From contig NZ_LT549890.1 of assembly GCF_900079115.1 (NCBI RefSeq), positions 2,340,001 to 2,372,000 of the forward strand: a DNA stretch of 32,000 bases. The letters run 5' to 3'. Under the pieces are notes generated by a model. That model did not search any database. It worked only from the letters and a program-made list of their open reading frames with translations, and was not told the DNA's origin. The translations under genes were made by a program, and so were the position numbers. The stretch comes from Saccharolobus solfataricus. GTDB taxonomy: Archaea > Thermoproteota > Thermoprotei_A > Sulfolobales > Sulfolobaceae. Of the stretch, positions 2,545-17,036 are shown one piece after another (within the stretch, counting starts at the first letter, position 1; each line of letters starts with the position of its first letter).

Positions 2545-2949
2545 TCAGATCTTTCTCTTAATTCTTTCCACTCTAACTTCCTCATCTAGCCTTTTCATAT
2601 TTTTCTCGATCCTTCTCCTCAACGAGAACCTAATGATGGAGCCAAATCTCCCTTCATAGTCCAAAACTAACTTAAGCTCACCCTCTTTGAATAATCCAAA
2701 TTCTAAAATTCCGCCTTCTCCTTTTTCTGTCCCTACACTGTAAAACTTATAGGATATCTTGTTGCTCCCTACATAAACTGTACCGTGTAGAATCACTGAT
2801 GTAACTCCCATCGATATTAAGGCATCGAATTCGTTACCCTTTACTGTAACTGTTTCTGCTCCTAGTATCTTGTGTAACGTAAAAACTGGGTCAGACAGAA
2901 TTTTCACTAAAGCTTGTATATCGTGCTGTGTAGGGAAAGTGAGTTCCAC
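2545..2949 (-). CDS. Hypothetical protein (134 aa), beta-rich core with a charged C-terminal helix; possibly a START/SRPBCC-like ligand-binding fold
   Basis: Clean ORF in a coding-dense context. I recognised no catalytic motif, and the fold suggestion rests only on the residue pattern. Confidence 0.55.
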   Translation of the reverse strand: MELTFPTQHDIQALVKILSDPVFTLHKILGAETVTVKGNEFDALISMGVTSVILHGTVYVGSNKISYKFYSVGTEKGEGGILEFGLFKEGELKLVLDYEGRFGSIIRFSLRRRIEKNMKRLDEEVRVERIKRKI

Positions 2950-3008: not shown

Positions 3009-4400
3009 TCAGCTTAAGATCCTTTTAACTAAGCTCTCCGCTTCCTTGTAATTATAGCTTCTGAATAGTTCTATTTTGCTAGCTTCCATTGAACCTTCTG
3101 CGTGAATCATACCAGTTAACAAGTATCCAGTAAACGTGCTTGCTCCCAATTCCTTAGCTAGTTTTAATACCTTGGCTCTCTCCTCTCCATCAACTGAGCC
3201 CCTCAAGTATTTAACTATATTCTTACCCTCATTACTTTCCAAATCTTCTTGAGATGGCATAGTAGCTATTATGCCTCCAGCAATATCAATTAGATCTCTA
3301 ACAACATCATGGAAATGCATATTGGAATATAATTTGCCGACATTAGTGAAAAGTGGGTTGGGCACAGCTATACCCTCCATGTTTACTGGATATACAGCTG
3401 CGGCTATTGCGCTACTTCTCATAATTTCCTTGTAAAGTATTATGTCAACAATGTCGTCTCTTACATGCTTCTCGTTTTCAATACCATTTACTTGAGATGC
3501 TACTTTAGATGCTCCCAAATACAGATTCATAGTTGCTGATCTATATGATAATGCAGTAAACCTATGGAAAGTCGCAAATAACATTGCCAAAGTTCCCGCG
3601 TAATCGTATTCTCTAAATAAAAACACCCTATCCCAAGGAACGAAAACGTCATCGAATACAGTTAATGTTTCCAACTCATAATCTTTTCTGCTAAGAACTG
3701 AGGAGGAATTACCTTCAATTTCATCAATTGGTCTAATATACATCTTCAAACCTTTAGTATTAGCCGGAATCGCGAAAGCTACCGCGTAATCTTTATCGCT
3801 GTCTCTCATTGCTCTAGTTGGTATAACAATAATCTCATCAGATACTGCAGATTGGGTAGTATGAGCCTTCGCTCCTCTGACTACTATTCCATCGCTTTTC
3901 ACATCAACTATTCTAACATACATATCAGGGTCAACTTGTTCAGAGGGCCTTTTACTCCTATCTCCCTTAACGTCAGTCTGGGCAGTAGCTAGCGTTAAAT
4001 CTTCTTTAGCAACCCTTTCAAAATATTTTTCAACACGTTTGGAGTAATCAGTTCCGTATTTTCTGTCAACTTGTTTTGCCGTGATCATAAGGGCAAAGAT
4101 CGCATCGCTCCCTATAGCTTGCGAAATGTTAAATATACCGTTGCAGTACATCGTTAAATCGTAAATTAGTTTATGTCTATCCAATAAATCCTGAGATGTT
4201 AACGGTATTTTAAAGAACTTGCTGATCTTTCCCATCTTATTATCCTCATAAACTCTATCAGCGTAGTCATATAACTTAGCTGCATGTAATGCAGCTGTCT
4301 TTAAAATATGATGTGCTGTTATGTCTTCCACTAATTTCCCCCTATAATACAAACTTCTTCCATCCTTCAAGGAATTTAGGAAATCATCTCTCGATCTCAT
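3009..4400 (-). CDS. 4-hydroxybutyryl-CoA dehydratase / 4-hydroxyphenylacetate 3-hydroxylase (AbfD/HpaB) family protein, function uncertain
   Basis: 463 aa. The family-typical block is TAQTDVKGDRSKRPSEQVDPDMYVRIVD...GIVVRGAKAHTT. The whole protein has a single Cys (MYCNG), so the Cys ligands of the AbfD [4Fe-4S] cluster are missing. Confidence 0.8.
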   Translation of the reverse strand: MRSRDDFLNSLKDGRSLYYRGKLVEDITAHHILKTAALHAAKLYDYADRVYEDNKMGKISKFFKIPLTSQDLLDRHKLIYDLTMYCNGIFNISQAIGSDAIFALMITAKQVDRKYGTDYSKRVEKYFERVAKEDLTLATAQTDVKGDRSKRPSEQVDPDMYVRIVDVKSDGIVVRGAKAHTTQSAVSDEIIVIPTRAMRDSDKDYAVAFAIPANTKGLKMYIRPIDEIEGNSSSVLSRKDYELETLTVFDDVFVPWDRVFLFREYDYAGTLAMLFATFHRFTALSYRSATMNLYLGASKVASQVNGIENEKHVRDDIVDIILYKEIMRSSAIAAAVYPVNMEGIAVPNPLFTNVGKLYSNMHFHDVVRDLIDIAGGIIATMPSQEDLESNEGKNIVKYLRGSVDGEERAKVLKLAKELGASTFTGYLLTGMIHAEGSMEASKIELFRSYNYKEAESLVKRILS

Positions 4401-4511: not shown

Positions 4512-5933
4512 TTACTTCTCACTTTTTATAATTCCTCCTTGAGGTTGCTGTGGAGTTAGGTGGATTTCGTTTATCTCCTCTAACCTTACTCCCACAGTTC
4601 TAGGAACAGTAAACCATAAGATCACTGCAGCTATAACCACAGGGAATGCCTCAATAGCCCATGCGTTTATTGGTCCAGTAGCTACTACTAACGGGAAGAG
4701 TAATAATGGGCCTATAGCTCCTCCAATATGCCCTATTCCATCGGTAATAGCAAATCCGGTAGATCTGGCTGCAGTTGGGAACGACTCACTACTCATTAAA
4801 TATCCAGCTAAGTATGACATCCCACCTCCAATAGCATTTGTAATAAGCCCTAAAGTTAATGTCATACCTAGCAAGTTAAAGTGTATAGCAAAATACGATG
4901 CAACTATCATACCTACTAACCAACCTATAGAGCCTATTTGTGTAATCATTCTTCTATCCGTTCTCTCTATAAAGGTTAATAGCAGAAATGCCATAAGAGT
5001 ATCTCCCAATGCTGCAAATCCTGTAAAGAGAACATACTGATTAAACATTGCCCCAGAGTAACCTATGAACTTTCCGTAGTAATCCCATAACGTCGAAAAT
5101 GTATACTGCACAAAGTATATGAAAAACCAGAACAATATGAGCCCTATTAAACGTTTTGCAAATACTCTTTTGGCTAATATTGAAAATGGGTTTGTAGTTT
5201 GATACGAATAATTAATTATTTTAGGTTCTGGTAACGACTGAACTCTAGCTCTCTTCATGGCAGTCTCTTCCATTATTCTAACGATACTCTCAGCTTCGTT
5301 TATCCTGCCCTTTTTAACTAAGAATCTTACAGTCTCTGGAGCCCTAATTCTAAATACTAATGCAGCAACAGCCATTATGGCTGCTATTCCAAAGGCTAAT
5401 CTCCATCCTACAGAGGGTAAACCAGTAACAAGTAATGCGGCAATTGTTGCACCGACACCAACTGCTATCCATCCAGCTAAGTAAATCCAGTTCGCATATT
5501 TACCTCTCTTAGCACTTGGGGCAAATTCAGATACATAAACCATAGCTAAATTTAAGTCTCCGCCTATTCCAGCTCCTTCAATGAATCTGAATATTGCGAG
5601 CATGGGGAAGTTGATTGATAATGCCATTCCTAAACTGCCTATTGCAGTTAGTAAGACGGTGATTATTAGCACAGTCCTTCTGCCTATTCTATCAGCTAAA
5701 TAACCTAATCCTAGTGAACCTGGAATATACCCAAAGAGACCTAGGGATGCTATTAGCGAAGCTTGAGATGCGTTGATAAAAGGTATATATGGTAGTGCTG
5801 CCCCTATATTTCCCACAGCGTCATAGAGTGTTATGAAGTAGCTAAATCCTATAGCCCATAGTAGCGCATATGATAATCCCCATGTTGGTAGTCTATCTAT
5901 TCTAGCCAGATACTCATCTAACTTACTACTCAT
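4512..5933 (-). CDS. MFS transporter (aromatic-acid/carboxylate:H+ symporter-like), paralog of 15636-17036
   Basis: It has multiple TM segments, DRIGRR between TM2 and TM3, and a long central loop (PETVRFLVKKGRINEAE). The ORF track starts at 5981. I place the start at the internal Met (MSSKLDEY, ATG complement of 5931-5933), because the upstream 16 codons are a conserved promoter block (see 5948-5985). Confidence 0.85.
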   Translation of the reverse strand: MSSKLDEYLARIDRLPTWGLSYALLWAIGFSYFITLYDAVGNIGAALPYIPFINASQASLIASLGLFGYIPGSLGLGYLADRIGRRTVLIITVLLTAIGSLGMALSINFPMLAIFRFIEGAGIGGDLNLAMVYVSEFAPSAKRGKYANWIYLAGWIAVGVGATIAALLVTGLPSVGWRLAFGIAAIMAVAALVFRIRAPETVRFLVKKGRINEAESIVRIMEETAMKRARVQSLPEPKIINYSYQTTNPFSILAKRVFAKRLIGLILFWFFIYFVQYTFSTLWDYYGKFIGYSGAMFNQYVLFTGFAALGDTLMAFLLLTFIERTDRRMITQIGSIGWLVGMIVASYFAIHFNLLGMTLTLGLITNAIGGGMSYLAGYLMSSESFPTAARSTGFAITDGIGHIGGAIGPLLLFPLVVATGPINAWAIEAFPVVIAAVILWFTVPRTVGVRLEEINEIHLTPQQPQGGIIKSEK

Positions 5934-5947
5934 GAAGTTTCTTAGGT

Positions 5948-5985
5948 CAGTTAATTCATAAAAATATCTTATGAAAGTCAATTTT
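5948..5985 (-). promoter_or_regulatory. Conserved promoter/operator block: 38 nt identical to 15584-15621, containing the palindrome TTCATAA-N7-TTATGAA (5955-5975) wrapped around a TATA-like AT run
   Basis: The reverse complement of 5948-5985 equals 15584-15621 exactly (AAAATTGACTTTCATAAGATATTTTTATGAATTAACTG). The AT-rich centre lies about 30 nt upstream of the MSSKLDEY ATG in both copies, which is the geometry of a leaderless Sulfolobus promoter. Confidence 0.5.
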
Positions 5986-6224
5986 TTAGATTTAAATTTC
6001 GGCTATATAATAAGAGATTTTTCGAATCTATCTTATATCATGCTACATTATTTATATATCCATAAAATCGATCTATCTTATATTCATAAAAAAGAGGTAG
6101 ACGCTACATTGACTGAGATTTGCTGGTTTTTATGAACAATGGCTCTTTATACATTTAAAAAGTATTATTGTAATGTCAATTTCCTTTAGAGTAAGGTTTA
6201 TATAAGATGAAAATAAATTATAAA

Positions 6225-6240
6225 TTGACTCAGTAATCAA
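6225..6240 (+). promoter_or_regulatory. Candidate autoregulatory operator of the TetR gene: near-palindrome TTGACT-CAGT-AATCAA
   Basis: Half-sites are TTGACT and TTGATT (reverse complement of AATCAA) with a 4-nt spacer. The site starts about 24 nt downstream of the TATA-like TTTATATAA (6197-6205), at the expected transcription start. The related AGTGAGTCAA occurs at 17120-17129 upstream of the esterase gene. Confidence 0.3.
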
Positions 6241-6245
6241 AAAAG

Positions 6246-6842
6246 GTGGTCCAAATGTATAGGTACCCAAAAACTGAAAAGGGGAAGGAGTCATTAAATA
6301 AAATCATAAATGCATCGCTAGACTTAATTTCAGAAAAGGGCTTTTTGAATACTAGTATAAGTGATATAACCAATAAGGCTGGTGTTGCTTACGGTTTGTT
6401 CTATTTCTATTTCAAGAGTAAACATGACATATTAGATGAGTTAATTAGAAAATTTAACACCGATATGAGGTATTATTTAAAGGTAAATACGATGGGGATT
6501 CGAAATAGAATAGAAATGGAAAAGGAAGGTTTAGCCAAATTTTTGGAATGGATGAGCCAGAATAAGAAATACTATAAGGTATTCGTAGAAGCTCAAGTGC
6601 ATAGGCCAGAAATGTATATATGGCATTTCACTAAATTGGCAGAGAGATATAAGATTGGACTAAAAGAGGCTATGGATAGGGGAGAAATAGTAAAAGTAGA
6701 TCCAGAATTACTAGCTTACGTATTAATAGGAATTGGTGAAATGATAGGTAGAAGATATATCCTATGGACGAATCAAGGGTTAACCAAAAAACAATATAAT
6801 GACTTGGCCATTCTTATAGAAAATATGCTGAGACCTAAGTAG
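6246..6842 (+). CDS. TetR/AcrR-family transcriptional regulator (FadR-like candidate regulator of the lipid cluster)
   Basis: N-terminal HTH: TSISDITNKAGVAYGLFYFYFKSKHDILDEL. The track start is GTG 6246. ATG 6255 preceded by GGTG (6246-6249) is an equally plausible start. Confidence 0.9.
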   Translation: MVQMYRYPKTEKGKESLNKIINASLDLISEKGFLNTSISDITNKAGVAYGLFYFYFKSKHDILDELIRKFNTDMRYYLKVNTMGIRNRIEMEKEGLAKFLEWMSQNKKYYKVFVEAQVHRPEMYIWHFTKLAERYKIGLKEAMDRGEIVKVDPELLAYVLIGIGEMIGRRYILWTNQGLTKKQYNDLAILIENMLRPK

Positions 6843-6843
6843 T

Positions 6844-7287
6844 CTAAACAAGGAATTTCGTATTTATTTTATTTGAGACGTTAGCCATAACCACTGAAGC
6901 AGTAGTATATCTTGCCAGATCGAAGAGACTACCTTTCTTAAGCTTTATTGTACCAGATAATAAGGCTGAGACTACTTGCAGTTTACCGCTTATTATATCT
7001 TTCCAAGAATTATAACTTGCCTCAAGTACATATGGTGCATCGGCCTTGGTAACATCTGTGAAAAATTCAATACCTTGACATTTTCCATTATTTAGATATA
7101 GCTTCATTGCTAAGGTGTTAGTACCTTTTACTCCTAAATGCTCTAACACTTGGGTAGGAATGTCGGTTACCACGAATAAAATTGGCGATACCCATCCTTT
7201 CCCTGCATCATTATATTCCTTGCTTTCATTTAGTAATTTACACCATTCTTCTGCCCATTCCCTGCTAGGATATAAAAATTCAGCCAT
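6844..7287 (-). CDS. SCP2 (sterol carrier protein 2 / lipid-transfer) domain protein
   Basis: 147 aa. The C-terminal ISGKLQVVSALLSGTIKLKKGSLFDLARY matches the SCP2 helix/strand signature. It is convergent with the TetR gene with a 1-nt gap. Confidence 0.75.
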   Translation of the reverse strand: MAEFLYPSREWAEEWCKLLNESKEYNDAGKGWVSPILFVVTDIPTQVLEHLGVKGTNTLAMKLYLNNGKCQGIEFFTDVTKADAPYVLEASYNSWKDIISGKLQVVSALLSGTIKLKKGSLFDLARYTTASVVMANVSNKINTKFLV

Positions 7288-14430: not shown

Positions 14431-15363
14431 TCAACTACTCATAGTATAATAAATACTACCACTAGCGTTTACCTCTCTTATAAAGCCCTCCTCGACTAGA
14501 TATTTAATATGTGCCAATGTTTCCCCCATTGCTAATTGTTTATCAAAAGCGGAAAGTTCATCCCACTTCTTGTACCAAGAAATTCTGGACGCAATATTAA
14601 ATCCACTAGTTTTTCCTAAAGTCCTTATAATGTTCATTATTTCCTCTAGCCGTCTTTTATGGTGCTCCTTTATTTCCTCTACCCTTTTACTCACATCTTT
14701 GAGTACTTCTCCATGTGCGGGATAAAGCAGTTCAATATCCAGTTTTTGTACCTTATCAAGGCTTTCTAAATAAGCCTTTAACGGATTATCCTCTAATCTA
14801 AGTAACGATATATTTGGCGTTATATCTTGCAATATATGATCTCCACAGAATACTACCTTTTCGTAAACTAGGCAAATGTGTCCCATAGTATGGCCTGGAG
14901 TCAATAATACCCTCATTTGTTCTTGGCCTAATTTTATCACATCTCCATCCTTAACGGTATTGAAATTTACGCCGTCAATGATTTCACTAAATCTACTTCT
15001 ATTTCTAAACATTCTCTGAATAAACTCTTCTGGAAAACCATTAGCGAGAAGATATTTCCTCATTTCCTTTTCATACTCCTCACTTAGTAGATAGGTTACA
15101 TATTCTAACTCCCTATCAGATATCAATATAATACTCTTATCCTTAAACAATCTAACTAAGCCCATATGATCTGGATGGTAATGAGTGATTACTACGAAGT
15201 TCGGATAACCATAAGCTTTCAAATAATTTGATAAAGTAGTCACATCTTCTTGAGTAGGTAGTCCAGTATCAATCAGTACGCTCTCTTCATTGCCTTTTAC
15301 TAAATATGAGTTTATGTACTTCAAGGGGCCTTGCATTGGTAACTTTAAAGTAAATATCGTCAC
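14431..15363 (-). CDS. MBL-fold metallo-hydrolase with a C-terminal helical/winged-helix-like extension
   Basis: ITHYHPDHMG is the HxHxDH motif. PGHTMGH and a later AHG follow. Confidence 0.85.
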   Translation of the reverse strand: MTIFTLKLPMQGPLKYINSYLVKGNEESVLIDTGLPTQEDVTTLSNYLKAYGYPNFVVITHYHPDHMGLVRLFKDKSIILISDRELEYVTYLLSEEYEKEMRKYLLANGFPEEFIQRMFRNRSRFSEIIDGVNFNTVKDGDVIKLGQEQMRVLLTPGHTMGHICLVYEKVVFCGDHILQDITPNISLLRLEDNPLKAYLESLDKVQKLDIELLYPAHGEVLKDVSKRVEEIKEHHKRRLEEIMNIIRTLGKTSGFNIASRISWYKKWDELSAFDKQLAMGETLAHIKYLVEEGFIREVNASGSIYYTMSS

Positions 15364-15583
15364 AAACTCATTCTCTCTTGACTAGCTTTAAAATTTATCT
15401 CCTTAATCCAATAAACTCATTTTACTCTTTTTACTATTAAAAATTAAATAAATAGCTAACTAAAAGTTAGGTCTTTATTCATAACTAAGGAAAGTAAAAA
15501 TATTCAAAATTCTTTTCTAACTTCTGTATGGTATATATTATCCATAGCTAGTATCTAATTATACAATTTATGTATAAAGCTAG

Positions 15584-15621
15584 AAAATTGACTTTCATAA
15601 GATATTTTTATGAATTAACTG
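15584..15621 (+). promoter_or_regulatory. Conserved promoter/operator block, second copy (palindrome TTCATAA-N7-TTATGAA at 15594-15614)
   Basis: It is identical over 38 nt to the reverse complement of 5948-5985. The ATATTTTTA centre lies about 30 nt upstream of ATG 15636. Confidence 0.5.
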
Positions 15622-15635
15622 GTGTAAGCACATCT

Positions 15636-17036
15636 ATGAGTAGTAAATTAGATGAATACCTAGCTAGGATAGATAGACTACCAACTTGGGGGCTATCATA
15701 TGCAGTACTATGGGCACTAGGAATAGGTTATTTTGCCACCTTATATGACGCAGTATCGAATTTAGGTTACGCTTTGCCATTCATCCCTTTCATAAACGCA
15801 ACTCAAGCTTCAATTATCGTATCTGTGGGATTAGCAGGTTACATAGCTGGTTCGATAGGTTTTGGTGTTGCTTCAGATAGGATTGGTAGGAGACCAATAC
15901 TGATTACCACTTTTGCGCTTTTAGGAATTGGTAGTTTGGGTATGGGTTTAGCTACTAACTATTTCATGTTGTTTATTTTTAGATTGCTAGAAGGTATAGG
16001 TATTGGAGCGGCTCTCAATTTAGCTATGGTCTATGTCGCAGAGTTTTCACCCAGTATGAAAAGAGGAAAATACGCAAATTGGATTTTCATCTCGGGGTGG
16101 ACTGCGGTGGGAGTTGGTACGGTCGCCGCAGCGTTCATCGTTACTATTAACCCTACAGTAGGCTGGAGAATAATTTTCCTTTTGCCTGCAGTTTTATCCC
16201 TTATGACTACCGTCGTTTTAACTATTTTATCTCCAGAAAGTGTTAGAATATTGGTAAAGAAAGGAAAAGTACAAGAGGTCGAGAAGATTGTGAATAAGAT
16301 GGAGGAGATAAGTATGAGGAGGGCTAGAATGGAATCACTTCCACAGCCTAAGATAATTCATTACGAAGAGACTCCATCCTCTAGCCAATTGAAAATACTA
16401 AGAGAGTCGAAATATCTTAAGCGTCTAATTTCGCTCACGGTCTTCTGGTTTTTCATCTACTTCATACAATACACATCTACAGGACTTGGTCCTACGTTCG
16501 TAAAAGTAGTGATTGGGTTTTCTACAGCTCAATATGCAGAATACATTAGATTGTCAGGATTCGCAGCTATAGGAGCCACCATAGTTTCATTTATTTTATT
16601 AAGCGTAGTTGAAAAGACAGATAGAAGGTTGCTGACCCAAATTGGAGGAATAGGGTTCCTAGTTAGCTCTTTTGTGTCCACATATTTATTGCTTAACAAG
16701 GAACTGATAGTCTGGTTTATAGCCTATTTTCTTCTTGAATTCGTTGTTAACCCGCCATACTTAGCTGGGTATTTAATGAGTAGTGAAGCCTTCCCTACTG
16801 CAGCTAGATCAACAGCCTTTGCCATAACTGATGGTATAGGGCATTTAGGTGGAGTCATTGGGCCTCTACTTTTATTTCCTTTAATAAGGATAATAGGTCC
16901 GTTACCAGCATGGGTAGTTTTAGGCCTTCCAGTTCCATTTGCCGCAGCATTGTTATGGTTTACCATTCCGAAAACAGTAAAGGTTAGACTTGAGGAGGTT
17001 AATGAAGCATATAGAGAGGGTACTGCGCAAACATAG
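15636..17036 (+). CDS. MFS transporter (aromatic-acid/carboxylate:H+ symporter-like), paralog of 4512-5933
   Basis: Same architecture as the paralog (MSSKLDEYLARIDRLPTWGLSYA..., DRIGRR, PESVRILVKKGKVQEVE loop). The track start at 15570 would translate the conserved promoter block, so I prefer Met23 (ATG 15636). Confidence 0.85.
   Translation: MSSKLDEYLARIDRLPTWGLSYAVLWALGIGYFATLYDAVSNLGYALPFIPFINATQASIIVSVGLAGYIAGSIGFGVASDRIGRRPILITTFALLGIGSLGMGLATNYFMLFIFRLLEGIGIGAALNLAMVYVAEFSPSMKRGKYANWIFISGWTAVGVGTVAAAFIVTINPTVGWRIIFLLPAVLSLMTTVVLTILSPESVRILVKKGKVQEVEKIVNKMEEISMRRARMESLPQPKIIHYEETPSSSQLKILRESKYLKRLISLTVFWFFIYFIQYTSTGLGPTFVKVVIGFSTAQYAEYIRLSGFAAIGATIVSFILLSVVEKTDRRLLTQIGGIGFLVSSFVSTYLLLNKELIVWFIAYFLLEFVVNPPYLAGYLMSSEAFPTAARSTAFAITDGIGHLGGVIGPLLLFPLIRIIGPLPAWVVLGLPVPFAAALLWFTIPKTVKVRLEEVNEAYREGTAQT

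Follow-up and report, generated by a model that had tools for sequence, protein, structure and literature searches.

A probable promoter segment shared by two MFS transporter genes that flank the fadR/beta-oxidation core of Saccharolobus solfataricus, with signatures of gene conversion and selection

Two MFS transporter genes of S. solfataricus, designated here MFS_A and MFS_B, are preceded by an identical 38-nt block that is probably the promoter shared by both, comprising a TATA box and an upstream element. Gene conversion appears to have transferred the block from A to B, with selection maintaining it thereafter, and it does not appear to be a site for FadR, the TetR family regulator encoded beside MFS_A. 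The locus adds a fresh example of two known phenomena, namely regulated archaeal promoters that carry an upstream element and concerted evolution of a segment in paralogs, and the current understanding of archaeal transcription is unchanged by it.

The MFS transporter genes and the block upstream of them

In the window, i.e. the whole 32-kb stretch of DNA that was analysed, MFS_A lies at 4512..5933 on the minus strand and encodes a product of 473 aa, and MFS_B lies at 15636..17036 on the plus strand and encodes a product of 466 aa. Both proteins start with MSSKLDEY. The A product matches the Pfam families Sugar_tr and MFS_1 and has the same start in RefSeq (WP_009989903.1), and the B product also has a Pfam match. 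The two genes face outward and flank a fadR/beta-oxidation core that includes fadR, an SCP2-like gene, and genes for a thiolase, a ChsH2-type Zn-ribbon/OB protein, an acyl-CoA synthetase, an acyl-CoA dehydrogenase, a fused hydroxyacyl-CoA dehydrogenase/enoyl-CoA hydratase and a metallo-beta-lactamase-fold protein. The genes concerned presumably carry the locus tags SSO2504, SSO2505, SSO2506, SSO2514 and SSO2515, and no paper mentioning these tags was found. Among the protein records of S. solfataricus P2, the B transporter is AAK42647.1 and the TetR protein is AAK42639.1 (exact match), which assigns the window to this strain. When genome contigs were searched with peptide patterns taken from the MFS alignment, only distant bacterial MFS genes were among the matches listed, and the iModulon paper and the supplements of the FadR study hold nothing on this carrier.

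The two transporters share 58% of their amino acids. Beyond codon 27, the nucleotide identity of their genes is ~55-62%, and third positions are saturated (25-40%), in agreement with the description of these coding regions as diverged in the initial annotation. Nevertheless, as also reported there, the reverse complement of positions 5948..5985 is identical at 38 of 38 positions to 15584..15621, the sequence being AAAATTGACTTTCATAAGATATTTTTATGAATTAACTG. The block thus occupies -52 to -15 relative to the ATG in both copies (ATG 5933 on the minus strand and ATG 15636 on the plus strand), and the distance from its end to the ATG of MSSKLDEY is 14 nt in each case. The preserved spacing had been noted together with the divergence of the spacer, and the two 14-nt spacers indeed match at only 7 of 14 positions. 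The block is also the longest substring that the two intergenic regions have in common. As shuffled intergenic regions never gave a match above 14 nt (mean 9.6, n=300), the 38-nt identity is not a product of chance.

Similarity between the paralogs is wider than the block and covers the interval between about -82 and +80. Over the first 81 coding nt, 70 of 81 positions match, and the identity falls to ~60% after +80. The block includes the perfect 7-7-7 inverted repeat TTCATAA-GATATTT-TTATGAA, described previously and correct as a matter of sequence, with its centre 32 nt 5' of the ATG. Exact matches to this dyad occur only twice in the window, at 5955..5975 (minus strand) and 15594..15614 (plus strand), both before the paralogous MFS genes. 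A dispersed repeat or MITE was therefore rejected as the source of the block, because only two copies are present in the window and both stand at the same position in the same gene context. A metagenome scan with TTGACTNTNATAANANNTNTTTATRAAT recovered three B promoters of the S. islandicus type along with three unrelated matches attributable to chance, and no new lineages or other genes with the block were found by it.

For comparison, related promoters were drawn from S. islandicus (A and B), E5-1-F (A and B), S. tengchongensis (A and B), S. acidocaldarius (A), two metagenomic contigs and more distant paralogs, giving a total of 13 promoters from about 7 lineages. A B copy was taken from an assembly labelled S. 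acidocaldarius.

Start codons of the transporters

The ORFs listed for the two genes are longer (489 and 488 aa) and run upstream through the block, with the N-termini MTFIRYFYELT / LTFIRYFYELT. The initial annotation considered these to be translated promoter rather than protein, and the comparison agrees. Stop codons lie in frame 5' of the ATG at -18, -21, -21 and -48 in S. acidocaldarius A, S. tengchongensis A, meta13_A and meta22_A, respectively, and the RefSeq protein for copy A begins at MSSKLDEY. Because of these stops in four orthologs and the RefSeq start, the longer ORFs are read as promoter DNA that has been translated by the ORF calling, with extensions that this comparison shows to be non-coding. 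The public records found for MFS_B (AAK42647.1 and others) give only the 488-aa form with a start inside the promoter, and hence the start codon of this gene is misannotated in them and should be corrected.

That the block is instead transcribed or translated, as an N-terminal extension (MTFIRYFYELT...) or as a hairpin in a 5'-UTR, has a negligible probability. The upstream frame is open for 69-90 nt before the ATG in the six Saccharolobus copies, which together with the long form annotated for copy B would suit an extension, but the four in-frame stops and the start of the RefSeq A protein speak against one. As RNA, the dyad could form a 9-bp stem. However, its predicted stability is only -8.1 kcal/mol at 37 C (z = -0.95), 34 of 200 shuffled sequences fold at least as well, and a scan of the whole window against Rfam gave no family matches.

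Predicted promoter elements within the block

Promoters in the Sulfolobales have a TATA box centred near -26/-27 with the BRE just upstream of it, and most of their mRNAs are leaderless. In the block, the octamer TTTTTATG is the predicted TATA box, at 15605..15612 (plus strand) for MFS_B and, with the same sequence and relative position, at 5957..5964 (minus strand) for MFS_A. It spans -31 to -24, so that its centre falls 27.5 nt before the ATG in both copies, and it overlaps the right arm of the palindrome (15608-15614 in copy B). The earlier placement of the block on the TATA region upstream of the ATG is thus supported by the geometry of the sequence, with a distance of ~27 nt, and from this placement it follows that the two carriers would share one control region.

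No SD-like GGTGA motif was found in the spacers ACCTAAGAAACTTC and GTGTAAGCACATCT; by contrast, fadR has GGTGG before its ATG. Given a TATA box centred ~27 nt before the ATG and a spacer lacking an SD motif, the transcripts of both carriers are probably leaderless. The TATA box, the BRE and the transcription start sites are assigned here from this geometry and from what is generally known of promoters in the Sulfolobales. The predicted arrangement resembles that of leaderless Sulfolobales promoters with BRE and TATA elements, in which an AT-rich TATA octamer likewise lies ~27 nt before the start and a Shine-Dalgarno sequence is missing. TTGACT followed by TATGAA might also recall a bacterial sigma-70 promoter, and this was rejected, as 15 nt is not the right spacing and sigma factors are absent from archaea.

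The remaining part of the block upstream of the dyad, AAAATTGACT, is designated the upstream element. It is located at 15584..15593 (plus strand) in copy B and, on the same basis, at 5976..5985 (minus strand) in copy A, corresponding to -52 to -43, with TTGAC at -48 to -44. Eleven of the promoters compared belong to A-type modules, namely those of seven A genes and four converted B copies (A and B of S. solfataricus, S. islandicus, E5-1-F and S. tengchongensis, together with S. acidocaldarius A, meta13_A and meta22_A). TTGAY is present at -48 or -49 in all eleven (11/11), and in ten of them it stands 15 nt before TTATRAA. TTATRAA(T) itself is found at a constant distance from the ATG in the A-type orthologs with the exception of meta22_A, which has TTTTAAA offset by 1 nt. 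TTGAY is absent from the B copies of the S. acidocaldarius lineage, from the third and fourth S. islandicus paralogs, and from S. tokodaii and meta24. The initial annotation had proposed examining whether the block is conserved upstream of orthologs in other Sulfolobales; this holds for TTGAY and the TATA box in A-type modules, but not for the dyad outside Saccharolobus. The order YTGACT, TATA, ORF start was found only before these carriers in the 32-kb window and in ~125 kb of related loci.

The region just upstream of the BRE is a common binding place for both activators and repressors in the Sulfolobales. AAAATTGACT is predicted to lie outside the usual TBP/TFB contact zone and is the best candidate within the block for the site of a specific factor, most likely a transcription factor that binds there. 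In this respect the block would be like leaderless Sulfolobales promoters that carry an upstream factor-binding element, the conserved element here being just 5' of the predicted BRE. We infer both the existence and the nature of a factor that would read this putative element. No match was seen between AAAATTGACT and those described Sulfolobales factor motifs that could be tested. Nor does it appear to fit the Ss-LrpB consensus TTGYAWWWWWTRCAA.

Gene conversion of the 5' module

In a neighbour-joining tree of the gene bodies, the A and B copies formed separate clades with bootstrap values of 86% and 98%, respectively, and each clade held S. acidocaldarius-like, S. tengchongensis and Saccharolobus members. 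As both clades are multi-species, the duplication is older than these lineages. The tree of the 5' module (-85 to +78) conflicts with this topology. In it, all Saccharolobus A and B copies fell into one clade (100%) nested among the A-type modules of S. tengchongensis A/B, meta22_A, S. acidocaldarius A and meta13_A, while S. acidocaldarius B and meta13_B, which have an unrelated promoter and N-terminus, were placed apart.

Derived characters are shared in the same manner. A 2-codon deletion, MSSK--LDEY, is common to both Saccharolobus paralogs, whereas the 10-residue form of this N-terminal stretch is kept in both S. tengchongensis paralogs and in all other A orthologs. In turn, AATCACATGAGCA is common to the two S. 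tengchongensis paralogs, and TTAACTG at -21 to -15, i.e. the last 7 nt of the block, is restricted to the pair of S. solfataricus copies, its place being taken by TTAATYN or WWATTG in the others. Within codons 1-27, third positions are identical at 15 of 24 degenerate codons, compared with a background of 36% (p = 0.007). Segment trees in conflict, shared derived characters and an excess of synonymous identity are together clear signatures of conversion between the paralogs.

Judged by identity and the 5'-module tree, the approximate conversion tract extends from about -82 to +80, which corresponds to 15554..15715 (plus strand) in copy B and 5854..6015 (minus strand) in copy A. Decay of its distal part (-82 to -60) is more advanced in S. 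solfataricus A. The earlier view that the block had simply been conserved since the duplication is therefore not upheld, and the identity is for the most part due to conversion of the 5' module. In the sequence of events proposed here, an A-type module made up of the promoter and the first 27 codons would have replaced the B-type module, first in the common ancestor of Saccharolobus and S. tengchongensis, through conversion between inverted repeats ~9.6 kb apart. Homogenisation would then have recurred at least twice more, most recently in the S. solfataricus lineage.

These features are like those of concerted evolution by ectopic gene conversion, in which the phylogeny of a segment likewise conflicts with that of the gene body, and derived indels and substitutions are likewise common to the paralogs of one genome. 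In the present case, the 3' boundary of the tract lies at ~+80 and the donor and acceptor are inverted and ~9.6 kb apart. The difference from known ectopic conversion is that the regulatory and N-terminal module alone would have been converted, between transporters whose bodies are 58% identical. Since the converted segment is confined to this module, the promoter, and presumably its regulation, would have moved from one paralog to the other. The locus may thus serve as a clean evolutionary example of a promoter and N-terminal module that moved between old paralogs and of a 31-nt core that was then selected.

Purifying selection on the core

The part of the block from -52 to -22, AAAATTGACTTTCATAAGATATTTTTATGAA, is located at 15584..15614 (plus strand) in copy B and at 5955..5985 (minus strand) in copy A. 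This core is identical at 31 of 31 positions in both ortholog pairs of S. solfataricus and S. islandicus as well as in both within-genome pairs. Between these two species, the intergenic stretch preceding the block shows 72-76% identity, and only 11-12 of the 21 positions from -21 to -1 match (~55%). When the six Saccharolobus promoters are aligned, variable columns make up 36 of 40 at -120 to -81, 14 of 28 at -80 to -53, 4 of 31 in the core, 5 of 7 at -21 to -15 and 12 of 14 in the spacer (-14 to -1). For third positions of the six coding sequences, the corresponding values are 11 of 25 in nt 1-75 and 13 of 15 in nt 76-120. The contrast in variability between core and spacer is significant (p = 4.5e-6, Fisher's exact test).

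Conversion within a genome cannot produce identity between species, and so selection is needed besides conversion. On this evidence, the 31-nt core is firmly indicated to be under purifying selection. The earlier proposal of selection on a non-coding block was therefore sound for the core (4/31 columns variable as opposed to 12/14 in the spacer). Under the model favoured here, purifying selection would hold -52 to -22, while the spacer before the ATG and the distal flank would drift.

It could be argued that the identity is no more than a remnant of very recent conversion, over an ordinary minimal promoter that has no additional regulatory site. Repeated conversion was demonstrated above, and the restriction of TTAACTG to the two S. 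solfataricus copies is compatible with such a remnant. However, a recent tract would have homogenised the 14-nt spacer too, which it has not (7/14), and a near-saturated spacer between the block and the similar 5' end of the coding sequence speaks against one very recent tract being the only cause. Furthermore, the core is identical (31/31) across species despite ~74% identity in neighbouring intergenic DNA, and the position of TTGAY is fixed out to S. acidocaldarius. This explanation is accordingly considered highly improbable, and conversion followed by selection is preferred.

Symmetry of the dyad

The dyad TTCATAA GATATTT TTATGAA extends from -42 to -22 and spans the predicted BRE and TATA box, its right arm coinciding with the TATA box and its left arm overlapping the presumed BRE region. 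The initial annotation took it to be a repressor operator that overlaps TBP/TFB binding. The location on the TATA region is supported, but the palindrome as the unit of selection is not, in view of the frequency with which such repeats arise by chance and of its decay outside Saccharolobus. Among the other intergenic 38-mers of the window, 3.2% contain a perfect repeat whose arms are 7 nt or longer and whose loop is 0-12 nt; for shuffled versions of the block the value is 10%.

Nonetheless, the main rival retained to the promoter reading is that the 21-bp dyad TTCATAA-N7-TTATGAA serves as operator for a dimeric regulator distinct from FadR, which would block TBP/TFB and repress both carriers. 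The dyad is perfect in both S. solfataricus and both S. islandicus copies and in E5-1-F A, i.e. in 5 of 6 Saccharolobus promoters, and S. solfataricus and S. islandicus show no variation at any of the 21 positions, the 7-nt centre included. In the sixth promoter, E5-1-F B, two of the four core substitutions are a paired C>T and G>A that restore a perfect dyad with the arms TTTATAA / TTATAAA, for which the rough estimate of chance is ~0.02; this compensatory change is a hint that symmetry itself may be selected. A position of -42 to -22 is moreover typical for archaeal repressors. On the other hand, the right arm is the TATA box itself, so that the G/A change is ordinary TATA variation, and a dyad of equal quality is found in 3-10% of comparable AT-rich 38-mers. 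The symmetry drops to 6/7 in S. tengchongensis A, 5/7 in S. tengchongensis B, S. acidocaldarius A and meta13_A, and 3/7 in meta22_A, while TTGAC and the TATA box stay fixed. The pattern is also not enriched in the window, where 7 hits with up to 3 mismatches compare with 6.7 expected, and no candidate protein is known. An operator defined by the dyad is for these reasons judged unlikely.

Relationship of the block to FadR

The TetR family ORF at 6246-6842 is an ortholog of FadR_Sa (E = 3e-95 to PDB 6el2). Alignment to FadR_Sa, PDB 6el2 and the 195-aa RefSeq forms places its true start at ATG 6255 (MYRYPKTEKG), and hence fadR occupies 6255..6842 on the plus strand. Its record, AAK42639.1, is the S. 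solfataricus FadR homolog used by Wang et al. 2019 (PMC6449355, Fig. 8). The recognition helix is identical to that of FadR_Sa, as are the stretch GVAYGLFYFYFKSKH and the side-chain DNA contacts K7, T8, K10 and S14. As the contact residues are unchanged, an altered specificity is unlikely.

According to Supplementary Table 2 of PMC6449355, FadR operators are 16-bp pseudo-palindromes of the form YTGA-N8-TCAA. The 13 ChIP-seq FadR sites in that table served to derive a symmetrised PWM, on which they themselves score 11.3-17.3. The best site in the window is a canonical operator, TTGACTCAGTAATCAA, at 6225..6240 (plus strand), with a score of 17.6. It lies outside the block, between the fadR TATA box and ATG 6255, and is conserved in S. 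islandicus, E5-1-F and S. tengchongensis. In either copy of the block, the best 16-mer scores only -2.9. The score is low because the right half-site is missing; TTGAC provides a left half-site, and the same is seen in every ortholog. The block is thus clearly mismatched to the FadR operator at the level of sequence, and the TetR protein, named in the initial annotation as the protein to be tried on the block, is not its expected binder.

Binding of the neighbouring FadR to the block, with acyl-CoA-responsive repression of both carriers, is therefore regarded as very unlikely. In its favour, fadR divergently adjoins MFS_A in the window, in S. islandicus, E5-1-F and S. tengchongensis and on one metagenomic contig, the block begins with TTGAC(T), a good left half-site, and two binding modes are possible for FadR_Sa (PMC6449355). 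In addition, TTGACT is the joint most frequent of 120 hexamers of the same composition in the intergenic DNA of the window (8 occurrences against a mean of 2.5). As TTGAC is a FadR half-site and TTGACT is frequent, a non-canonical FadR contact may exist. However, all 13 ChIP-seq sites score at least 11.3, the second half-site is absent in the orthologs too, the DNA-reading residues are those of FadR_Sa, and a canonical operator is available ~240 nt away at the start of fadR. Moreover, the supplementary tables accompanying the work on FadR in S. acidocaldarius (PMC6449355) name no MFS, permease or major-facilitator gene.

The context is nonetheless that of the S. acidocaldarius fadR cluster, a fadR-centred beta-oxidation and esterase cluster with an orthologous regulator (PMC6449355), and in both species an operator is located between the TATA box and the start of fadR. 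The block shares the TTGAC half-site with the FadR_Sa operators and differs from them in having no second half-site and in failing the PWM. The carriers are probably not direct FadR targets, and it follows that the cluster likely has a regulator besides FadR. The SCP2-like ORF at 6844-7287, next to fadR, was considered as a candidate regulator and set aside, since its product is an SCP2-like lipid carrier and not a DNA-binding protein.

Implications for the regulation of the carriers

If the block is the shared promoter of MFS_A and MFS_B, both carriers, transcribed outward from the fadR/beta-oxidation core, would receive the same transcriptional input. A more specific proposal is that an uncharacterised Saccharolobus regulator uses -52 to -22 as its operator, reading either TTGAC or the dyad, and that this control was grafted onto MFS_B by conversion together with 27 codons. 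This proposal is tentative and the less probable case. Were it true, both flanks of the FadR-controlled beta-oxidation core would answer to a second, FadR-independent signal, and gene conversion would have acted as a mechanism of rewiring onto an anciently diverged second carrier.

The upstream element AAAATTGACT and the TATA box at a fixed spacing constitute a defined cis-element that can be tested, situated before carriers that flank an archaeal cluster for fatty-acid degradation. Patterns by which a regulon could be defined are AAAATTGACTTTCAT and TTGAY-N15-TTATRAA within 60 nt of start codons.

The fadR operator and other FadR-like matches

A canonical FadR operator, TTGACTCAGTAATCAA, is present at positions 6225-6240 (+) and scores 17.6 with the symmetrised FadR position weight matrix derived from 13 ChIP-seq sites. 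The operator lies immediately 3' of the TATA-like sequence AAATTATAAATT, and 15 nt further on is an ATG at 6255, from which translation would begin with MYRYPKTEKG; a Shine-Dalgarno-like GGTGG is located between the two. The fadR ORF of the ORF track, which starts at GTG 6246, is probably 3 codons too long, and ATG 6255 is favoured. The operator at fadR is retained in S. islandicus, the related strain E5-1-F and S. tengchongensis.

The second and third ranked matches to the matrix in the window, at 2198-2213 (16.4) and 2482-2497 (13.0), are found at the 3' end of an insertion sequence ORF for a DDE transposase (1258-2223, +) and shortly past it, in a convergent intergenic region. These matches may be due to chance or represent IS-end sequence.

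Two weak FadR-like motifs, TTGATAAAGTAGTCAC (15228-15243, score 10.4) and TTGAGTAGGTAGTCCA (15250-15265, score 9.3), lie side by side within the 5' portion of the metallo-beta-lactamase-fold gene (14431-15363, -), ~370-400 nt upstream of the carrier gene MFS_B (15636-17036, +). FadR sites inside genes are known in S. acidocaldarius. The promoter of this divergent lactamase-fold gene includes the conserved sequence CTTGACTAGCTTTAAAATTTA (15377-15397, +), in which a TTGAC/GTCAA half-site lies after the TATA and ahead of the gene start. S. islandicus also has this sequence, and it is partially conserved in E5-1-F and S. tengchongensis.

Conserved elements in the promoter regions

A second conserved island was found at 6098-6140 (+) in the intergenic region between the paralogous carrier gene MFS_A (4512-5933, -) and fadR, and consists of GCTACATTGACTGAGATTT followed ~16 nt later by TTTTTATGAA. 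The island has the same YTGACT-then-TATA layout as the 38-nt promoter block shared by MFS_A (5948-5985, -) and MFS_B (15584-15621, +), but is directed at fadR. No ORF of at least 80 aa is found downstream of it, and the island is also present in S. islandicus, S. tengchongensis, E5-1-F and the metagenomic contig meta22. This island may represent a distal promoter of fadR or the promoter of an ncRNA.

Upstream of MFS_B, a second palindrome, TTATAC-AATTTAT-GTATAA (15559-15577, +; approximately -77 to -59), falls within a stretch, TATCTAATTATACAAT.TA.GTATAA, that is near-invariant in the B promoters of S. solfataricus and its relatives as far as S. tengchongensis. In the A promoters this stretch is decayed, most of all in that of S. 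solfataricus, and the palindrome may be a B-specific upstream site. Before the A-type carrier in meta22 (locus L022, 3225-3290), two directly repeated copies of the element AAACTTGACTA lie ~47 nt apart, and the S. tengchongensis A promoter includes a second AAATTGAC, located after the TATA and ahead of the ATG.

With both strands counted, TTGACT occurs 8 times in the 5 kb of intergenic DNA in the window (at 987, 5981, 6109, 6225, 15378, 15588, 17129 and 26896), making it joint top among 120 hexamers of the same composition (mean 2.5). The ORFs are poor in it (10 versus a mean of 14.6). The intergenic excess may reflect FadR half-sites or some other common element.

Neighbouring genes

Two genes lie downstream of MFS_A in the same orientation: one at 3009-4400 (-) encoding a flavoprotein of the HpaB family, and one at 2545-2949 (-) whose product is DUF3211/STK_08120-like. 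The same three-gene arrangement is seen in S. islandicus, S. tengchongensis and the metagenomic contig meta13, and partially in meta22, so the three genes may form a single transcription unit driven by the block. Convergent with fadR is an ORF of 147 aa (6844-7287, -) that had no match in a Pfam search but resembles SCP2-type sterol/lipid carriers (PDB 2cx7 and 1wfr, E ~1e-15), and its synteny with fadR is preserved in all related genomes compared.
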